In this document: one piece after another, positions 2,647-60,330 of the stretch
Position numbering within the stretch: position 1 is the first letter of the stretch
Layout of the letters: every line of letters starts with the position of its first letter
Source of the DNA: Actinomycetota bacterium
GTDB taxonomy: Bacteria > Actinomycetota > Actinomycetes > S36-B12 > UBA10799
Assembly: GCA_020636995.1 (NCBI GenBank)
Contig: JACJWU010000008.1
Location: 555-64,554 of the forward strand
Direction of reading: 5' to 3'
DNA length: 64,000 bases
Position numbers and translations under genes: made by a program
Notes under the pieces: generated by a model
The model's input: the letters and a program-made list of their open reading frames with translations, nothing else
What the model was told of the DNA's origin: nothing
Database searches by the model: none

Positions 2647-2894
2647 GTGACGGTTGAGCCCGGTTGGGGATTGCCGCGTGACGGTCGAGCCGGGTTGGGG
2701 ATCGGCCTGTGACGGTCGAGCCGGGTTGGGGATCGGCCTGTGACGGTCGAGCCGGGTTGGGGATCGGCCTGTGACGGTCGAGCCCGGTTGGGGATCGGCC
2801 TGTGACGGTCGAGCCGGGTTGGGGATCGGCCTGTGACGGTCGAGCCCGGTTAGGGATCGGCCTGTGACGGTCGAGCCCGGTTAGAGATCGGCAT
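2647..2894. repeat. Tandem array of 8 x 31-bp units (GTGACGGTCGAGCC(C/G)GGTTGGGGATCGGCCT); the last unit merges into palindromic element A1
   Basis: Units start at 2647, 2678, 2709, 2740, 2771, 2802, 2833 and 2864; no unique spacers. Confidence 0.95.
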
Positions 2895-2989
2895 CTTGGT
2901 TAGTCGGCGGCTGGTTGGTTAGAGTCCCACGGCCGTATAGGACTAACCGGAGTGCCGTGTCTCTAACCAGGATGCCGATCTCTAACCGG
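2877..2989. repeat. Nested palindromic REP/MITE-like element family A, copy 1 (113 bp)
   Basis: Terminal inverted repeat CCGGTTAGAGATCGGCATC...GATGCCGATCTCTAACCGG; three GGTTAG on the left, three CTAACC on the right; central GTCCCACGGCCGTA. Confidence 0.95.
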
Positions 2990-3030
2990 AGTGCCGTACG
3001 GCGCCCGCGGAGTTCACACGACTTGCCGCG

Positions 3031-3039
3031 TTATCCACA
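3031..3039 (+). promoter_or_regulatory. Perfect DnaA box (TTATCCACA) upstream of the nuclease gene
   Basis: Exact match to the DnaA-box consensus about 50 bp before the likely GTG at 3090. Function is untested. Confidence 0.5.
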
Positions 3040-3089
3040 GAATTGCGGCGGCATCCCACCTACGAGCCGGCTGCCACAACACTGGGCGG

Positions 3090-3998
3090 GTGTTCCGTAG
3101 ATCAGATCTCGCCTCATCAGGAGCCTCCCGCGCCCAGATCGACCAGCTCTGCAAGGAGTCCGAAAGACTCCGACGAGACGTCTGGATCGCCAAGGACATG
3201 GACCCCTGGGAGCGGCACGATGTGTTGGCGGGGGTGGTGTTGTCCGACCTGCAGCCGAGCGCGATGCTGACCGGTCCCACCGCCGCCTACCTACTCGGCC
3301 TGCCCCGCCCGAAGGTGCCTCCGGGGCAGATCTTTGTCCGCGGTGTTCCGCGCGGCGCGTATGGGGACGATGTGAAGGTGCTCGGCGGCGCGGCCCCGAT
3401 GACGATCCGTGACGGCGTGCGCATGGCCGACCCTGCGGTGGTGGTGGCGGACTGTGCTCGATGCCTGTCGGCACGGGACAGCTTGGCCATCGCCGATGCG
3501 GCAACCCACCAGCGCATGTGTGGTGTCGATGACCTTGCGGATGTCGCCGAGTCCTTCCACGGAAGACACGGTGTACGCCGGGTCGCATGGCTTGCCGAAA
3601 ACGTCGATCCGGCGGCCGAATCGCCGGGCGAGACCTGGACCTGCATCGTCCTGACGATGCTGGGCTATGCTCCGACATCCCAGGTGGTGGTTCGTGATGC
3701 GGGCAGGACCGCACGGGTTGACTTCCTCTTGGAGGATGGCCGCACCATTGTCGAGTTCGATGGGCTGATCAAGTATCAGACATCGGCGGCGACCGAAGTG
3801 AACAGCGAGAAGGACCGGCAAGCCTGGCTGGAATCTCTCGGCTACGTCGTGGTGCGGGTTCTGTGGAAGCATCTGGCTGATCCCGAGACCCTTGCCGCCC
3901 GGCTGGCTCGCCTTGGTGCGGTGCCTACAGGCAAGCCGATGGTGCTTCCCGCTGGCTGGCACCTGGTGGATCCCGTTAGAGATCGGCATCTTGGTTAG
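3090..3998 (+). CDS. AbiEi-like / DUF559 (Vsr-like PD-(D/E)XK) endonuclease-domain protein
   Basis: Motifs AESPGET, RVDF, VEFDGLIKY and EKDRQAWLESLGYVVVRVLW. The ORF is open from 2991, but GTG 3090 has a -10-like AACACT 6 nt upstream. The stop codon lies inside element A2. Confidence 0.8.
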   Translation: MFRRSDLASSGASRAQIDQLCKESERLRRDVWIAKDMDPWERHDVLAGVVLSDLQPSAMLTGPTAAYLLGLPRPKVPPGQIFVRGVPRGAYGDDVKVLGGAAPMTIRDGVRMADPAVVVADCARCLSARDSLAIADAATHQRMCGVDDLADVAESFHGRHGVRRVAWLAENVDPAAESPGETWTCIVLTMLGYAPTSQVVVRDAGRTARVDFLLEDGRTIVEFDGLIKYQTSAATEVNSEKDRQAWLESLGYVVVRVLWKHLADPETLAARLARLGAVPTGKPMVLPAGWHLVDPVRDRHLG

Positions 3999-4103
3999 TC
4001 GGCGGCTGGTTGGTTAGAGTCCCACGGCCGTATAGGGCTAACCGGAGTGCTGTATGTCTAACCAGGGTGCCGATCTCTAACCAGGCTGCCGATCTCTAAC
4101 CGG
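3973..4103. repeat. Family A palindromic element, copy 2, with a duplicated right arm
   Basis: Same sequence and orientation as copy 1, plus an extra 19-bp GCTGCCGATCTCTAACCGG at the right end. Confidence 0.95.
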
Positions 4104-4117
4104 AGTGCCCCGGGCTC

Positions 4118-5092
4118 TCAGCGCACCGCAGCACGAGCCAAACGATCCCGAACGGCGACCGCCAGCGCTGAACCATCCGCAGGGGGCTGAGCCCACACCA
4201 CCGGGAGACCCAGGGCGTCGGCGTCGCGCAGAGACCGGTACACCACCGCGGCGTAGGCGCGTGTGTCCTCGGGTTCGGCCAGTCGCACGGCTCCCGGTGG
4301 CGTCGGCACGCCGGTCAAAGCCAGGAACCCCTCGCCGGGGGCGGCGCCGTTCCCGAGATGTACGGCTGCGCGAGGCGCGTAGTGCGATGCCAGACCGCCA
4401 GGGGCTCGCACCGCCGAGCTCGCAGTCGACACCGGCCGGCCCCCGACGCGCTCGATCTCGTCGACCTCAACGGCTCCCCATCGAAGCACCCGAGGTCTGT
4501 CGTCAGTGCAGTCCAGGATGGTGGACTCCACGCCCACCGGGCACGGGCCGCCGTCGAGTACGAGGTCGTGGACAGGGTCGAGGCGGTCGCCGATGTCCGC
4601 GATCACGTCGGCTGCGGTGGTGGGTGAGACCTGGCCGAACCGGTTGGCGCTCGGCGCCGCCACAGCCCCGGCAGCCTCGATCACGGCCAGGGCGACCGGG
4701 TGCGCCGGGCAGCGCAGCCCGACCGTGTCCTGCCCGCCGGTCAGGTATCGCGGGACATCGTCCGCAGCGGGCACGACCAGGGTCAGGGGTCCCGGCCACA
4801 GCGCCGCCGCCAGGCGGGCCGCGTAGCCGGGGACGTTCTTGCCCCACGCCGGGAGGTCCGCCGGGCCGCTCACATGCACGATCACGGGGTGGTCGGACGG
4901 GCGGCCCTTGATCGTGAAGACCCTCCCCACGGCCGCACGGTCACGGGCCGCGGCGGCCAGTCCGTACACGGTTTCGGTGGGCAGGCCGACCACGCCGCCC
5001 GCAGCCAGGGCGTCGGCCGCGCGCGCAACCGCACCAGGTTCGACATGGCCGGAGCGCCACGCCGGGGTCACAAGGTCATCGGACATAGCCAT
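4118..5092 (-). CDS. sua5: L-threonylcarbamoyladenylate synthase (Sua5/TsaC)
   Basis: PTETVYGL, KGRPSDHPVIVH, WPGPLT, APSANRFG, GVESTI and C-terminal SHYAP motifs. Confidence 0.93.
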   Translation of the reverse strand: MAMSDDLVTPAWRSGHVEPGAVARAADALAAGGVVGLPTETVYGLAAAARDRAAVGRVFTIKGRPSDHPVIVHVSGPADLPAWGKNVPGYAARLAAALWPGPLTLVVPAADDVPRYLTGGQDTVGLRCPAHPVALAVIEAAGAVAAPSANRFGQVSPTTAADVIADIGDRLDPVHDLVLDGGPCPVGVESTILDCTDDRPRVLRWGAVEVDEIERVGGRPVSTASSAVRAPGGLASHYAPRAAVHLGNGAAPGEGFLALTGVPTPPGAVRLAEPEDTRAYAAVVYRSLRDADALGLPVVWAQPPADGSALAVAVRDRLARAAVR

Positions 5093-21266: not shown

Positions 21267-21393
21267 CGCCGGTGTGCCGCGCCCGGGCTGTGGATGAGCG
21301 CCGCCGTGGGACGTGCGTGGGGTGGATGGAGTGTCCAGGGAGGGTGGTCAGGTAGCTCCGGTTGATGGGTGGTCGCTGCGCCTGGTGATGGGT

Positions 21394-21483
21394 GGAGATC
21401 CAGGCCCGTGGTCAGCCCGGTGTCGGTCAGGATCTCCGTGGGCAGTCCGGTTACGGTCAGGATCCCCGTGGGCAGCCCGGTTA
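21394..21483. repeat. Degenerate ~30-bp tandem units abutting the left end of element A3
   Basis: CGGTCAGGATCTCCGTGGGCAGTCCGGTTA (21424) and CGGTCAGGATCCCCGTGGGCAGCCCGGTTA (21454), plus a more degenerate unit at 21394. Confidence 0.75.
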
Positions 21484-21589
21484 GAGATCGGCATGTTGGT
21501 TAGTCGGCGGCATCTTGGTTAGAGTCCCACGGCCGTACAGGGCTAACCGGAGTGCTGTTTCTCTAACCGGGATGCCGATCTCTAACCGG
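21477..21589. repeat. Family A palindromic element, copy 3 (113 bp)
   Basis: Same terminal inverted repeats and core as A1, same orientation. Confidence 0.95.
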
Positions 21590-21659
21590 AGTGTCGCCGA
21601 TTAACCGGACCCGCCCCTCGCCATTGCCGCGGAGCCCGCGGGCACTCGAGTCCGGCACG

Positions 21660-21772
21660 TTGGTTAGAGTCCGGCATGTTGGTTAGTCGGCGGCATCTTG
21701 GTTAGAGTCCCACGGCCGTACAGGGCTAACCGGAGTGCTGTTTCTCTAACCGGAGTGCCGATCTCTAACCGG
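21660..21772. repeat. Family A palindromic element, copy 4
   Basis: Near-identical to A3, about 70 bp downstream; outer left arm is degenerate. Confidence 0.9.
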
Positions 21773-21849
21773 AGTGCCGGCGCCAGCCCGTACCGTGACC
21801 AACCTGTCTGGACAGAACAACTGGCGTGCCGGATCCTGGACGGCCGGCG

Positions 21850-26188: not shown

Positions 26189-26305
26189 TTGTGGCGTTGT
26201 TGCTAGGCACAAGCCCACGATTGTGACGTAGTTGCGGGGTCCCACGGCCGCGGACCCCGCACCTTCGTCACAACGGGGGTCGCAGGCGTGACAACAACGT
26301 CACAA
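26189..26305. repeat. Nested palindromic element family D (TTGTGACG...CGTCACAA arms), copy 1
   Basis: Inner 22-bp stem 26221-26273 with loop CACGGCCGC; outer arms offset by 32 nt on each side. Confidence 0.8.
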
Positions 26306-26341
26306 GCGGCTCGTTTCGCGCGTCATCGAACGAGCCGAACC

Positions 26342-34494: not shown

Positions 34495-34626
34495 CGTACG
34501 GAACCGGTTGGCGAAGGCCGATTGCCAACCAGTTCCAGACACTAATCCGTTCGAAATGCCCCTTTTGTCGACCTCCAGCCGTACGGAACTGGTTGGAGCG
34601 GACCGGCCGTCAACCAGTTCTGTACG
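34495..34626. repeat. REP doublet family B (CGTACGGAACTGGTTG...CAACCAGTTC), copy 1
   Basis: Two hairpins starting at 34495 and 34580. Confidence 0.85.
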
Positions 34627-37597: not shown

Positions 37598-39180
37598 TGA
37601 AGAACCGCAAACCAGTGCCCGCCGTGGCGTTGATCGCCGGAGGCGCCGGGGATCGCGAACTGCTCAGCGTGCGCGCCGCCGCCATGCTCGACTCCGCCGA
37701 AGTCGTGGTCTGCGACCCGGAAGTCACGGGCCTGCTGACCGGCCTCGACGTCGAGGTGCTCGACATCCCGACGGCCCCGACCGACGCCCCTGCAGTGGCG
37801 AAGGCGCTGACCGAGCAGGCGCGGGCGGGCCGGCACGCGGTGCGGATCTTCGCCGGTGATCCGGTGCTCGACGGCCGCGTCTTGGCCGAGGCCAAAGCCC
37901 TGCATCGCTCCAAGGTCCCGTTCGAGATCCTCCCCTGCGCCGCCGGGATCTCCGGCATGGCCGCCTACGCCGGGATCGGACTGACGGGCCCCAAGGCCAA
38001 GCAGTTGCGGGTCGTCGACCTGCTGTCCGGCGAGGTCGACAGCGAGACGCTGGCAGACGCCACTGCGACGCTGGTGATCCGCAACGCCGCCGACTCCGCG
38101 GCAGCCATCGCCAAGGCCGCCCTGGCCGCCGGGCGGACCCCCGGGACCGGCCTGGTGATCGTACGCAGCGGGACGACCGTCGAACAGCAGACGCTCATCA
38201 CCACCCTCGGTGACGCCGCCGCGGACATCAAGGCCGCGAAACTCACCGGCAACGGTGACGTCTTCCTCGGCGACGGGGTGTCCACTGCGGGAGCGCTGGG
38301 ATGGTTCGAGAGCCGGCCCCTGTTCGGCTGGCGCGTACTGGTTCCGCGCACGAAGGATCAGGCCGGCGAGCTCTCGGCCAGGTTGCGTGTGTTCGGCGCG
38401 GTGCCGGTCGAGGTGCCGACCATCAGTGTCGAGCCACCACGCACGCCCCAGCAGATGGAGCGCGCGATCGAAGGGATCGAGGCCGGGCGCTACCAGTGGA
38501 TCGCGTTCACAAGTGTCAACGCCGTGCGGGCGATCCGGGAGCGGTTCGAACAGCGGGGGCTGGATGCCCGCCACCTCGCCGGGCTGAAGATCGCGGCCAT
38601 CGGTGAGAGCACCGCCGAGGCTCTGCGGGAGTTCGGGGTGCGTGCGGATCTGGTGCCGCCGGCGGAGAGCCAGTCCTCGGCCGGGCTGCTGGAGGTGTGG
38701 CCGGAGCGGGACGCCGAACTCGACCCGATCGGCCGGGTGTTCCTGCCGCGTGCCGACATCGCCACGGAGAAACTGGTGGCCGGCCTGGAGGGCCTCGGCT
38801 GGGAGGTCGACGACATCACCGCGTACCGGACCGTACGTGCCGCCCCGCCGGCTGCGGAGATCCGGGAAGCCATCAAGACCGGTGGCTTCGACGCGGTGGT
38901 CTTCACCTCGTCGAGCACGGTGCGCAACCTGGTCGGCATCGCCGGCAAGCCGCACGCCTCGACAGTGATCGCCGCCATCGGCCCGGAGACGGCGGCCACT
39001 GCGGTGGAGCATGGCCTGAAGGTTGCCGTGCAGCCTGCGCAGGCGAAGATCGAGCCGCTCGTGGCGGCTCTCGCCGAGCACGGCGAGCAGTTGCGGCAGG
39101 CCGCGCTCGACAACGGTGAGCGCACCTGGCGGCCGTCGAAGCGGCGAGGCGCCGGACGGCGGCGGGCCGCGAAGTCATGA
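37594..39180 (+). CDS. hemD: Uroporphyrinogen-III synthase with N-terminal methyltransferase-like domain
   Basis: RPLFGWRVLVPRT, FTSVNAV, AIG..TA and FTSSSTV. Confidence 0.9.
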   Translation: MMKNRKPVPAVALIAGGAGDRELLSVRAAAMLDSAEVVVCDPEVTGLLTGLDVEVLDIPTAPTDAPAVAKALTEQARAGRHAVRIFAGDPVLDGRVLAEAKALHRSKVPFEILPCAAGISGMAAYAGIGLTGPKAKQLRVVDLLSGEVDSETLADATATLVIRNAADSAAAIAKAALAAGRTPGTGLVIVRSGTTVEQQTLITTLGDAAADIKAAKLTGNGDVFLGDGVSTAGALGWFESRPLFGWRVLVPRTKDQAGELSARLRVFGAVPVEVPTISVEPPRTPQQMERAIEGIEAGRYQWIAFTSVNAVRAIRERFEQRGLDARHLAGLKIAAIGESTAEALREFGVRADLVPPAESQSSAGLLEVWPERDAELDPIGRVFLPRADIATEKLVAGLEGLGWEVDDITAYRTVRAAPPAAEIREAIKTGGFDAVVFTSSSTVRNLVGIAGKPHASTVIAAIGPETAATAVEHGLKVAVQPAQAKIEPLVAALAEHGEQLRQAALDNGERTWRPSKRRGAGRRRAAKS

Positions 39181-40130
39181 TCCGGCCCCGGCGGCTGCGG
39201 GCCTCGGCGGCGATGCGCCGTCTCGTCAGCGAGGTTCGCGTGCACCCGGCGCAACTCGTGCTGCCGGTGTTCGTCGCGGAGGGACTGGATGCGCCGCGAC
39301 CGATCTCCTCGATGCCGGGGGTCTTCCAGCAGACGCTGGACACCCTGCCGGACGTCATCGAACAGGCGGCCGCGGCGGCTATCGGCGGGGTCATGCTTTT
39401 CGGCGTGCCGATCCACAAGGACGCCGTGGGCACCGGGGCGACCGACCCGGACGGAATCCTGAGCCGTGCGGTCGGGGTGGCTTCGCAGGTGGCGGCTGGA
39501 AGGTTGGTCGTGCAGGCCGATCTGTGCCTGGACGAGTTCACCGATCACGGGCACTGTGGCGTGCTGGACGGCGACCGTGTCGACAACGATGCGACCCTTG
39601 TGCGGTATGCGCAGATGGGCGTGGTGCTTGCGCGCGCAGGAGCGGACATGCTCGGCACCAGCGGCATGATGGACGGCCAGGTCGCCGCGGTGCGCGAGGC
39701 GCTCGATGCGGCCGGTTTCGTCGACACCACGATCCTCGGCTACGGCGCGAAGTACGCGACAGCCCTGTACGGCCCGTTCCGGGAGGCCGTCAACTCCTCG
39801 CTCACCGGTGACCGCCGCACCTATCAGCAGGACCCCGCCAACGGCAGGGAGGCGCTGCGGGAGGTTCGGCTCGATCTGGCGGAGGGGGCGGACGTCATCA
39901 TGGTCAAGCCCGCGTTCCTCGACGTCGTGTCGGCGGTGGCAGAGGTCTCGGATGTGCCCGTCGCGGTCTATCAGGTGTCGGGCGAGTACGCCATGGTGGA
40001 GGCGGCCGCCGCCAACGGGTGGATCGATCGGCGGGCCATGATCCTGGAATCGCTCACCGGGTGTGTGCGGGCCGGCGCCGACATCGTGCTCACCTACTGG
40101 GCGCTGGAAGCCGCCGAGTGGCTCGGTTGA
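39177..40130 (+). CDS. hemB: Porphobilinogen synthase
   Basis: RPRRLR, DLCLDEFTDHGHCG, SGMMDG, MVKPA and YQVSGEY. Confidence 0.96.
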   Translation: MIRPRRLRASAAMRRLVSEVRVHPAQLVLPVFVAEGLDAPRPISSMPGVFQQTLDTLPDVIEQAAAAAIGGVMLFGVPIHKDAVGTGATDPDGILSRAVGVASQVAAGRLVVQADLCLDEFTDHGHCGVLDGDRVDNDATLVRYAQMGVVLARAGADMLGTSGMMDGQVAAVREALDAAGFVDTTILGYGAKYATALYGPFREAVNSSLTGDRRTYQQDPANGREALREVRLDLAEGADVIMVKPAFLDVVSAVAEVSDVPVAVYQVSGEYAMVEAAAANGWIDRRAMILESLTGCVRAGADIVLTYWALEAAEWLG

Positions 40131-49235: not shown

Positions 49236-49348
49236 CCGGTTAGAGATCGGCATCTTGGTTAGTCGGCGGCAGGTTGGTTAGAGTCCCACGGCCGTATAGG
49301 ACTAACGGGAGTGCTGTATGTCTAACCGAGATGCCGATCTCTAACCGG
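49236..49348. repeat. Family A palindromic element, copy 5 (113 bp)
   Basis: Same terminal inverted repeats and core, same orientation. Confidence 0.95.
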
Positions 49349-49567: not shown

Positions 49568-49662
49568 ACGGGCAAGGGGAGCTCGGGGCAGCCGGGCTGA
49601 GAGGGTCACCGACGCGCGTGGCCGACCCACCGAACCTGATCTGGGTAATGCCAGCGGAGGAA
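49568..49662 (+). ncRNA. TPP riboswitch
   Basis: GGGGAGC...CTGAGAG...GACCC...ACCTGATCTGGGTAATGCCAGCGGAGG, directly upstream of a thiamine ABC operon; SD lies inside the aptamer 3' end. Confidence 0.93.
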
Positions 49663-49664
49663 CT

Positions 49665-50687
49665 GTGAAGAAACTGCTGCTCCTGCCTCTCGTGGCCGCA
49701 CTGGCGGCGTGCTCCTCGACCGCACCCGAGATCGAATCGTCGCCTCCGACTGAGGTCGTGCTCGTGACCCATGACTCCTTCTCGGTGTCGAAGAAGGTGC
49801 TGCGGGAGTTCAGCGAGCAGACCGGCTACGAGGTGACAATCGTGCAGAACGGGGACACCGGTCAGGTCGTGAACTCCGCGATCCTGTCGGCAGGTGTCCC
49901 GCAGGGGGACGTGCTGTTCGGAGTCGACAACACCTTCCTGAGCCGGGCCCAGGAAGGCGGGGTGTTCGAGGACTACCAAGCCGCGGGCGCGCCCGAGCAG
50001 CTCGCCCAGGCCGCGCCGGGTGTCACCCCGATCGACACCGGCGCGGTGTGCCTGAACTACGACCGGGAGTACTTCGCGGACTCCCCGCCGCCGGCGACGC
50101 CTGCGGACCTGGTGAAGCCGCAGTACAAGGACCTCACGGTGGTGCAGAACCCCGCCACCTCGTCGCCGGGGCTGGCCTTCCTGCTGTCAACCGTGTCGCG
50201 TCAACCCGATTGGCAGACCTACTGGGAGCAGTTGAAGGCCAACGGCGTGAAGGTCGTGGACGGCTGGGAGAACGCCTACTACCAACAGTTCTCCGGCGGA
50301 TCCGGAGAAGGCACGCGGCCGATCGTCGTCTCGTATTCGACGAGTCCGGCCGCTGAGGTCATGTTCAGCGAAGACCCGGAGGCGCCGGCCCCAACAGCCA
50401 ATGTCGACTCCGACTGCTTCCAGCAGGTGGAGTACGCCGGTGTCCTGGCCGGGGCGCGCAATCCGGAAGGGGCGCGGGCCTTCATCGACTACATGCTCTC
50501 CGCCACTTTCCAGGACGACATCGCCGAGCAGATGTTCGTGTATCCGGTGGTACCCGACGCAGCGGTACCGCCGGCATTCGAGGAGTACTCCGCGCCGCCC
50601 ACTGATCCTGTGGTGATGGCACCCGAACAGATCGCCGCCGGGCGTGAGGAATGGATCGACGAGTGGTCGGCGATCATGGGTCAGTAG
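49665..50687 (+). CDS. thiB: Thiamine ABC transporter substrate-binding lipoprotein
   Basis: Lipobox LAAC, THDSF, GVDNTFL, PATSSPG.AFL and SYSTSP. Confidence 0.92.
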   Translation: MKKLLLLPLVAALAACSSTAPEIESSPPTEVVLVTHDSFSVSKKVLREFSEQTGYEVTIVQNGDTGQVVNSAILSAGVPQGDVLFGVDNTFLSRAQEGGVFEDYQAAGAPEQLAQAAPGVTPIDTGAVCLNYDREYFADSPPPATPADLVKPQYKDLTVVQNPATSSPGLAFLLSTVSRQPDWQTYWEQLKANGVKVVDGWENAYYQQFSGGSGEGTRPIVVSYSTSPAAEVMFSEDPEAPAPTANVDSDCFQQVEYAGVLAGARNPEGARAFIDYMLSATFQDDIAEQMFVYPVVPDAAVPPAFEEYSAPPTDPVVMAPEQIAAGREEWIDEWSAIMGQ

Positions 50688-55531: not shown

Positions 55532-55663
55532 CGTACGGAACTGGTTGGGGTCCAGGCTGCGCCAACCAGTAACACGCGGTTGCCGGTCGACGGTGTCCGC
55601 CAACTGCGGCGTGTCGCGTACGGAACTGGTCAGGGCCGAGGGTGCGCCAACCAGTTCCGTACG
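55532..55663. repeat. REP doublet family B, copy 2
   Basis: Hairpins starting at 55532 and 55617, with the same arms as 34495/34580. Confidence 0.85.
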
Positions 55664-60151: not shown

Positions 60152-60174
60152 GCGTGCGAGGGGACTGGCCGGCG

Positions 60175-60330
60175 ATTGTCGCGAAGTTGGCGGCCCGTCC
60201 ACCCCGATTGTCACGAAGGTGCTGGGTCCGACGGCCTGAAACCCCTCACCTTCGTGACAAAGAGGTTCCGGACCGTCGCAACTTCGTCACAATGGCCGGC
60301 GGTCCGGACCGTCGCAAACTTCGTCACAAT
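60175..60330. repeat. Family D nested palindromic element, copy 2, with an extra right-arm duplication
   Basis: ATTGTC(G/A)CGAAG at 60175 and 60207; CTTCGT(G/C)ACAA ending at 60260, 60292 and 60329. Confidence 0.8.

Follow-up and report, generated by a model that had tools for sequence, protein, structure and literature searches.

Nuclease genes with AbiEi-like and Vsr-type domains adjoined by their own palindrome families in an actinobacterial genome: an apparent counterpart of REP/RAYT partnerships

A gene for a putative nuclease, here called P1, lies between two direct copies of a dispersed palindrome, here called F1, in a stretch of 64,000 nucleotides from an Actinomycetota bacterium (the window: positions 555–64554 of contig JACJWU010000008.1, or C16, of assembly GCA_020636995.1, the source genome, here G000). 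The genome holds seven paralogs of this gene, P1–P7, each adjoined by its own palindrome family, and the same layout recurs in dozens of other genomes. This nuclease–palindrome pairing looks like an undescribed counterpart of the partnerships between repetitive extragenic palindromic (REP) sequences and REP-associated tyrosine transposases (RAYTs), built on an unrelated enzyme. Literature searches on the nuclease family together with REP or REPIN (REP doublet) repeats returned no published description of such an association. The pairing of gene and repeat is established about as firmly as sequence analysis can do. Positions below are those of the window, unless a contig is named; the G000 assembly comprises 2.99 Mb in 17 contigs, with 67% G+C, and is 91.5% complete.

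The P1 locus and the F1 palindrome

The features on which the argument is built are the following.

2877–2989, + strand: A1, the upstream copy of F1, with GGTTAG three times at a 19-nt period, then the central loop and three CTAACC boxes
3031–3040, + strand: TTATCCACAG box, similar to a DnaA box, located after A1 and ahead of the start codon of P1
3090–3998, + strand: nuclease gene P1 (302 aa), with a predicted AbiEi-like winged-helix module (N-terminal and middle parts) and a C-terminal Vsr/DUF559-type PD-(D/E)XK nuclease domain
3972–4103, + strand: A2, the downstream copy of F1; a 113-nt core (3972–4084) and an extra 19-nt terminal unit that extends to 4103
21477–21589, 21662–21772, and 49236–49348 (the last on the + strand): solo copies of F1, matched to the consensus

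F1 is an imperfect palindrome made of three 19-nt units starting with GGTTAG, a central loop, and three mirrored units ending with CTAACC, that is, a single 113-nt hairpin of six boxed units of 19–20 nt. A repeat search and alignment of the window gave five copies (2867/2877, 3962/3972, 21467/21477, 21650/21662, and 49226/49236), the exact limits of which were set against the family consensus. A1 and A2 are about 95.5% identical to the consensus in the + orientation and only about 72% in the opposite one; hence, they are direct copies of an imperfect palindrome. A2 occupies the entire gap up to the convergent Sua5/TsaC-like gene (stop at 4118), and the TAG stop codon of P1 (3996–3998) falls in its second GGTTAG box. 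The original prediction, made from the letters of the window, had placed the nuclease gene between direct copies, with a stop codon supplied by the downstream one and three gene-less copies farther along, and the alignment to the consensus bears this out.

In the whole genome F1 is present at 104 loci, of which 78–86 are near full length and mostly 90–98% identical to the consensus; many copies carry between one and five extra terminal units. The family is almost wholly intergenic (4 of the 104 loci lie within long open frames, against 87% of random intervals). The boxes are invariant between copies, which differ at a few spacer positions only. The consensus has a folding energy of −38.1 kcal/mol as single-stranded DNA (z = −9.2 relative to shuffles). 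A search of Rfam with F1 returned only sub-threshold hairpin look-alikes and no family.

The likely start codon of P1 is the GTG at 3090, which is consistent with the N-termini of its orthologs, the frame being open from the GTG at 2991. The AlphaFold model of the protein has a pLDDT of 88.8 and a pTM of 0.85, and its sole disordered part (pLDDT <50, residues 295–302) consists of the last eight residues, P + VRDRHLG, which are encoded by A2. The Pfam family DUF559 (PF04480) matches P1 narrowly above the cut-off (22.6–22.8 vs. 20.6 bits) and matches 8 of 15 relatives; the only other match, to MTES_1575 (a Vsr-type nuclease domain), is below the Pfam cut-off. A profile of the 15 relatives matches the Protein Data Bank (PDB) entries 3hrl (DUF559-like) and 3r3p (the Vsr-like homing endonuclease I-Bth0305I), and the fold of the C-terminal domain of P1 matches I-Bth0305I (TM 0.71, root-mean-square deviation 2.9 Å) and other PD-(D/E)XK nucleases. 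For the N-terminal and middle parts of the model, the top fold match is Rv2827c (1zel; E 6e-4, 224 columns, TM 0.36). Pfam AbiEi_4 has no match in P1, and AbiEi_1 matches 1 of the 15 relatives. Hence, of the AbiEi/DUF559 label first given to the gene, the DUF559 part stands by a narrow score, and the AbiEi part is to be taken as a predicted similarity of fold to Rv2827c, not as a Pfam assignment.

Residues E181, D211, E222, D224, and G225 are conserved without exception, even in relatives with as little as 20% identity; in the P1–P4 subgroup, K takes the place of the histidine that follows the ExDG motif. The comparison of P1 with its ortholog in the congener genome G002 gives a ratio of nonsynonymous to synonymous rates (dN/dS) of 0.11, as low as for the housekeeping neighbors. 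With a confident model, these fold matches, the invariant acidic residues, and the low dN/dS, P1 is plausibly an active nuclease. In the same pair of genomes (3090–3971 vs. L011:4290–5174), the nuclease has dS 0.61 and dN 0.068, and the neighboring Sua5 and membrane-protein genes have dS 0.82–0.88 and dN 0.10–0.12; the common ancestor of the cassette could therefore be more recent than that of its flanks.

No AbiEii (DUF1814) partner is found near P1, the neighbors of which are an alcohol dehydrogenase (ADH) gene and the Sua5/TsaC-like gene. PADLOC gives no match with P1, and NCBIfam no useful one. The box seen at 3031–3040, after the upstream palindrome and ahead of the start codon, is a common trait of the family: a YYRTCCACAG box on the sense strand is present within 200 nt upstream of 80 of 97 homologs, and downstream of 1 of the 97. 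It looks like the actinobacterial DnaA box (TTGTCCACA).

Paralogs, palindrome families, and other genomes

The search for paralogs in G000 combined tblastn, a Pfam scan of the genome, a hidden Markov model search, and jackhmmer. It retrieved seven genes, which are given here with their palindromes (F1–F5 and G1–G4 are palindrome families of G000).

P1: F1, 104 loci; both sides, direct copies
P2: F2, 54 loci; both sides, direct copies
P3 (contig C11): F3, 15 loci; doublet upstream, no downstream palindrome
P4 (contig C10): F4, 43 loci; both sides, direct copies
P5: F5, 11 loci; both sides, direct copies
P6: hairpin with one other genomic copy; downstream only
P7: G4, 31 loci; both sides, direct copies

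All seven paralogs are thus flanked by a palindrome of their own, five on both sides, one upstream only, and one by a downstream hairpin that has a single other copy. For six of the seven, the family is dispersed (11–104 loci). The matrix of paralogs by families is strictly diagonal for P1–P6, where only the gene's own family is present within 350 nt, and P7 pairs with G4. P1–P5 and P7 share a common order: an upstream palindrome, a TCCACA(G) box 5–45 nt on, a start codon some 50–90 nt further, and the open reading frame (ORF). In P1, P2, P4, P5, and P7 a second palindrome, oriented like the upstream one, comes after the ORF, and in P1, P2, and P5 this second palindrome contains the stop codon.

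About five pairs of F1 copies separated by 500–2000 nt are expected by chance, so a single pair about 1 kb apart is not improbable. Hence, the significance of the bracketing comes from the contents of such pairs across families and not from their spacing. There are ten same-family pairs 500–2000 nt apart in G000: five enclose a paralog, four contain an insertion sequence (IS) inserted in the repeat, and one encloses an unrelated gene. The latter is an F4 pair 1.2 kb apart (C12:291191–292201) around an ORF of 336 aa, possibly a methyltransferase as judged by eye. It is the sole bracketed gene that is neither a nuclease nor an IS; chance alone would give about one.

The layout was then sought elsewhere by comparing the 400 nt upstream with the 400 nt downstream of each homolog, the control being the upstream flank of one homolog against the downstream flank of another. 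Matching flanks above the 99th percentile of the control are present at 14 of 23 loci of the genus and order. Across Actinomycetota, this is the case for 26 of 76 loci (44 of the 76 are above the 95th percentile); the 76 include loci of cultured Brevibacterium, Janibacter, Rhodococcus, Cellulomonas, Cellulosimicrobium, and Oryzobacter. Relatives of the nuclease are numerous, with more than 500 in one scan of species genomes. The idea of a layout resembling that of RAYTs and REPINs, with a Vsr-like nuclease as the candidate partner, was put forward from the window and is supported by the seven paralogs with their own families and by these flank tests. It came through all of the refuting tests listed with it that lend themselves to in silico work.

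The congeners (genomes with three-digit handles, such as G001) allow a closer comparison at the site of P1. The cassette is present between the Sua5/TsaC-like and ADH genes in G000, G002, G004, G006, and G001. At this site the flanking palindromes keep the 19-nt architecture, and the box varies by species.

G000: GGTTAG
G002: GGTGAG at all boxes of both copies; protein with 88% aa identity to P1
G004: GCGTTAG
G006: GCGTTAG type, with GCGTTAGAG downstream and a GGTTCG array upstream
G001: GCGTTGGA on both sides

The repeats are also largely species specific in the rest of the genome. F1 is high-copy in G000 only. The repeat of G004 has 21 matches, all confined to G004, and that of G001 is matched about 94 times in G001 and 74 times in G009, but not at all in 12 other congeners. 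The GGTGAG form of G002 is seen at the cassette only, in an assembly that is fragmented. In six congeners (G012, G003, G007, G010, G005, and G008), the site is empty: the two genes are 13–90 nt apart, with neither a nuclease nor a clear palindrome, which marks the cassette as an insertion. Both filled and empty states are therefore found among congeners, and gene and repeat co-vary between species at this site, as would be anticipated from the partnership first proposed. Contig C67 of the G002 bin (L151) has a Sua5–ADH gap of about 150 nt with a solo three-box arm only. It was rejected as an empty allele of the G002 population: its Sua5 region is only 73% identical to that of C22 (L011), which indicates that two related organisms are mixed in the bin.

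The filled and the empty state occur at scattered points of the tree of the flanking genes, and the tree of the nuclease disagrees with it. For example, the syntenic nuclease of G001 groups with nonsyntenic genes of G003, G007, and G010. Hence, gain or loss of the cassette, with its palindromes, took place repeatedly.

Known systems, mechanism, and rival explanations

The REP/REPIN–RAYT systems of Proteobacteria, or REPtrons (Bertels and Rainey 2011, PMC3116915), resemble the present one in several respects. In both, an enzyme gene is flanked by cognate palindromic repeats, and a genome has several paralogs of the enzyme, each paired with a dispersed family of its own. These families occupy intergenic DNA with tens to hundreds of copies, doublets and clusters among them (F3 occurs as doublets), and the repeats differ between species. 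The differences concern first the enzyme, which here has an AbiEi-like winged helix and a Vsr/DUF559 PD-(D/E)XK domain instead of being an HUH Y1 transposase. The repeats are arrays of 19–20-nt units with a short box iterated in both arms, whereas a REP is a short hairpin with a 5′ GTAG-type head, a conserved tetranucleotide, and replicates as inverted doublets. Unlike in REPtrons, the flanking copies are direct. RAYTs are single-copy genes with vertical inheritance; here each family has one gene, but the cassette is patchy and its tree disagrees with the species tree, so that its descent would not be strictly vertical. A RAYT domain (Y1_Tnp, PF01797) has no match in the whole G000 genome at E ≤ 1. 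In conclusion, the nuclease system would work in the manner of a REPtron, a class from which the lack of the defining enzyme excludes it.

AbiEi antitoxins of type IV AbiE systems, such as Rv2827c of Mycobacterium tuberculosis (PDB 1zel), bind several inverted repeats near their own gene (PMC7319586). No structure fits the N-terminal and middle parts of the P1 model better than Rv2827c. P1 differs from AbiE systems by the lack of an AbiEii toxin gene, the presence of a C-terminal nuclease domain, and the absence of a Pfam AbiEi_4 match, and the repeats that it is a candidate to bind are dispersed over the genome. The C-terminal domain resembles I-Bth0305I (3r3p) and the DUF559 protein NGO0050 (3hrl) by profile and fold, with the active-site acidic residues kept. 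Unlike I-Bth0305I, P1 has no intron or intein context, is fused to the AbiEi-like module, and, as in P2–P4, has K in place of the histidine after ExDG. Finally, F1 is short, gene-less, palindromic, and present in many copies, as are miniature inverted-repeat transposable elements (MITEs), bacterial interspersed mosaic elements, and Correia elements, and some of its copies are in modular units bounded by terminal inverted repeats (TIRs). Unlike for MITEs, no parent IS with F1 ends was found and no target-site duplication was seen, and each of the palindrome families frames a gene that is not a transposase.

We lean, by a small measure, towards regarding P1 and its two F1 palindromes as one unit of a repeat-and-enzyme partnership, of which the roughly 100 solo F1 copies are gene-less derivatives. 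The mechanism that we would propose, to which we give a roughly even chance, is that the winged helix reads the iterated boxes and that the nuclease cuts, and thereby spreads or maintains, the repeats. The AbiEi-like module would read a box of 6–8 bp (GGTTAG in F1). The box being iterated three times per arm every 19–20 bp, about two helical turns, adjacent positions on an arm could be taken up by several protein molecules. Nicking or cutting at or beside the bound arms would then fall to the Vsr-type PD-(D/E)XK domain, and through the host repair or replication that follows the cut, solo palindromes would be copied or moved in trans, as would, less often, the entire cassette. P1 is probably also autoregulated by its protein bound to the flanking copies, as in AbiEi antitoxins. 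Binding, cleavage, and mobilization by the nuclease are all steps that we infer from sequence. A broader proposal, which we hold more tentatively and put somewhat short of an even chance, is that a new class of bacterial mobile DNA, widespread in Actinomycetota, has the AbiEi-like/Vsr-type nuclease as its catalytic engine. In such a class, a winged-helix-guided PD-(D/E)XK enzyme would cut and copy the cassette and the solo palindromes without any known transposase or recombinase, with several non-cross-reacting systems per genome.

Several observations weigh against a repeat family driven by its nuclease. Three palindrome families of G000 have no partner gene: G1 (45 loci), G2 (26), and G3 (38). 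In the congener G009, the GCGTTGGA family is matched about 74 times, and there is no close ortholog of the G001 nuclease; the Sua5 gene was not found in the G009 assembly, and these repeats represent either an orphan family or an assembly gap, the assemblies of G000 and G009 both being incomplete (~92%). Repeats can thus persist, and perhaps spread, without the gene. Hence, of the expectation that copy number depends on gene presence, what stands is that repeats pair with genes; copy number is not strictly tied to gene presence. Nor are the partnered families younger, with a mean identity to the consensus of 75–91% against 81–83% for the orphans. About 20 F1 cores are inside units with 25-nt TIRs, and these could have been moved by an ordinary transposase. 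Target-site duplications are not visible at 78 aligned F1 junctions, where many flanks are themselves repeated modules, and no clean insertion junction is readable to the base. Compensatory base-pair changes are absent among 43 distinct F1 copies, a test made uninformative by the youth of the family. Alleles with and without the element were not seen in wastewater metagenomes, for which assembled contigs only were used, and these are broken at repeats. We know of no strand-transfer chemistry for a PD-(D/E)XK nuclease alone.

These data leave room for other explanations. The protein might bind the palindromes for autoregulation or for structuring the genome, with the repeats spread by an unrelated route (recombination, replication slippage, or another enzyme) and the nuclease domain having some other role. 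This accounts for the fold, as AbiEi proteins bind multiple inverted repeats (PMC7319586) and P1 resembles Rv2827c, for the fixed geometry of palindrome, TCCACAG box, and start codon, and for the orphan families. Autoregulation needs neither a second, downstream copy nor 10–100 more copies, however, and the invariant catalytic residues are under purifying selection. Because most empty sites have no palindrome, the repeat arrives with the gene, and we consider this explanation unlikely. It is slightly less probable still that the palindromes spread independently and that a homing-type nuclease gene inserts into some copies, a target duplication then bracketing the gene. The resemblance of the nuclease domain to I-Bth0305I would fit such an origin, and so would the solo three-box arm of C67 at an otherwise empty site and the insertion of other mobile genes into palindromes (IS110 three times in GGT^TAG, as well as IS256 and IS3). 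Yet there is exactly one gene per family for 11–104 potential targets, the flanking copies are complete rather than halves, the six empty Sua5–ADH sites have no clear palindrome to home into, and from one species to another the boxes and the gene change together.

An ordinary MITE, moved by a conventional transposase that is encoded in the missing 8.5% of the genome or on an IS since lost, would make the bracketing of P1 a coincidence or a matter of intergenic preference. The clear 25-nt TIRs around some 20 F1 cores, the chance expectation of about five F1 pairs at 0.5–2 kb, and the incomplete assembly can be read in this way. But G000 has no autonomous element with matching ends, and the IS copies that touch F1 are inserted into it and not bounded by it. 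Coincidence cannot explain why five families bracket their own paralog and a sixth is just upstream of its own, nor why the same layout is found in dozens of other genomes; we regard this origin as quite improbable. The same holds, and much more so, for a fused AbiE-like or restriction-like defense protein with incidental palindromes. The N-terminal module is AbiEi-like, and Vsr-type nuclease domains do occur in conflict systems (PMC3710099), but PADLOC gives no match, there is no AbiEii/DUF1814 partner among neighbors that are housekeeping genes, each of the seven paralogs has its own repeat family, and none of the repeat data would be explained.

Partnered and orphan families together amount to about 400 loci in the 3 Mb of G000. 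The biology of REPs and RAYTs has been worked out in Proteobacteria, for one enzyme family. If the nuclease partnership is real, a second, unrelated enzyme is paired one-to-one with repeats, and within-genome replicators evolved more than once. It would also assign a role to the hypothetical proteins annotated as DUF559/AbiEi-like, which form a very large family, and provide a natural set of non-cross-reacting pairs of protein and DNA box, seven in G000 alone, with boxes readable from the sequence. Sequence nearly identical to G000 is found in wastewater metagenomes of at least six studies; the organism is abundant in wastewater plants, and population data for tracking the dynamics of the element thus exist. 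A 976-nt skip joint (2994 to 3971) in these metagenome contigs was set aside as unreliable, since its 28-nt anchor lies inside the repeat.

Insertion sequences, composite units, and further repeats

The remaining features concern elements inserted in the palindromes and further repeats in the window and genome.

C10:~228985–230520, C12:~38303–39840, and C15 end, ~92862–92927 (G000): three copies of an IS110-family element (~1.5 kb, DEDD-type transposase)
C1:497451–497728, C1:614865–615049, and C10:250275–250421 (G000): examples of loci of orphan palindrome families
2647–2894, + strand: tandem array of about eight units of 31 bp, consensus GTGACGGTCGAGCCCGGTTGGGGATCGGCCT, which grades into A1
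21327–21819, + strand: composite unit with 25-nt inverted ends (TGTTCTGTCCAGGGAGGTTGGTCAC-like), which holds the solo F1 cores 21477–21589 and 21662–21772
26221–26308, strand not assigned: F4 copy (TTGTGACGAAGGTGCG boxes); another F4 copy is at 60171–60295
34495–34626, + strand: F3 doublet (CGTACGGAACTGGTTGG...CCAACCAGTTCCGTACG); a second F3 doublet is at 55532–55663
49236–49348, + strand: solo F1; the insert that holds it, about 440 nt long, is missing at the orthologous intergenic site of G002, G004, and G001

Neither a RAYT nor an IS sharing F1 or 25-nt TIR ends is present in G000, and the rival explanation foreseen at the outset, a transposase with matching ends, thus found no candidate there. 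The IS110-family element was considered as a parent of F1 and rejected. The 1.66-kb units of C10 and C12 start and finish with F1 sequence, but the part that they share is the IS alone, the flanking F1 copies being different, and base-by-base comparison places the insertion at GGT^TAG. All three copies of the element sit at this same place in an F1 box, which suggests that it is a site-specific parasite of the repeat. Some IS110 relatives (e.g., IS621) target REP sequences, and the element resembles them as a secondary parasite that is not the partner of the repeat. An IS256-family element is inserted in the center of an F1 copy and an IS3-family element in a G3 repeat (C10:374584–376020 and C14:12379–13777). 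The IS110, IS256, and IS3 elements are parasites of the palindromes, not their source.

The three orphan families differ in structure: G1 (~45 loci) is 61 nt long, G2 (26–41 loci) is made of 58-nt tandem units, and G3 (~38 loci) has 19-nt GATGGGGTTC units mirrored round a loop.

In the array upstream of P1, the last 31-bp units carry GGTTAG, and the final one is the first 19-nt unit of A1. The array unit corresponds to an F1 terminal unit and 12 nt more, and the array is unique to the P1 locus in G000. It is apparently a local amplification that took in the first unit of A1. Its first unit begins about 30 nt upstream of the start codon of the ADH gene (2617, minus strand).

The composite unit at 21327–21819 is one of about 20 units of 226–468 nt bounded by 25-nt inverted ends (TGTTCTGTCCAGGGAGGTTGGTCAC) in G000, each with one or two F1 cores. 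These units are a second level of MITE-like packaging. A search for their transposase was unsuccessful, as no pair of ends is more than 468 nt apart and no longer, gene-bearing partner was found. Just to the right of the F1-bearing insert, four congeners conserve a segment at ~49590–49700 (GGGGAGCTCGGGGCAGCCGGGCTGAGAGGGTCACCG...ACCTGAT) that resembles a thiamine pyrophosphate (TPP) riboswitch.

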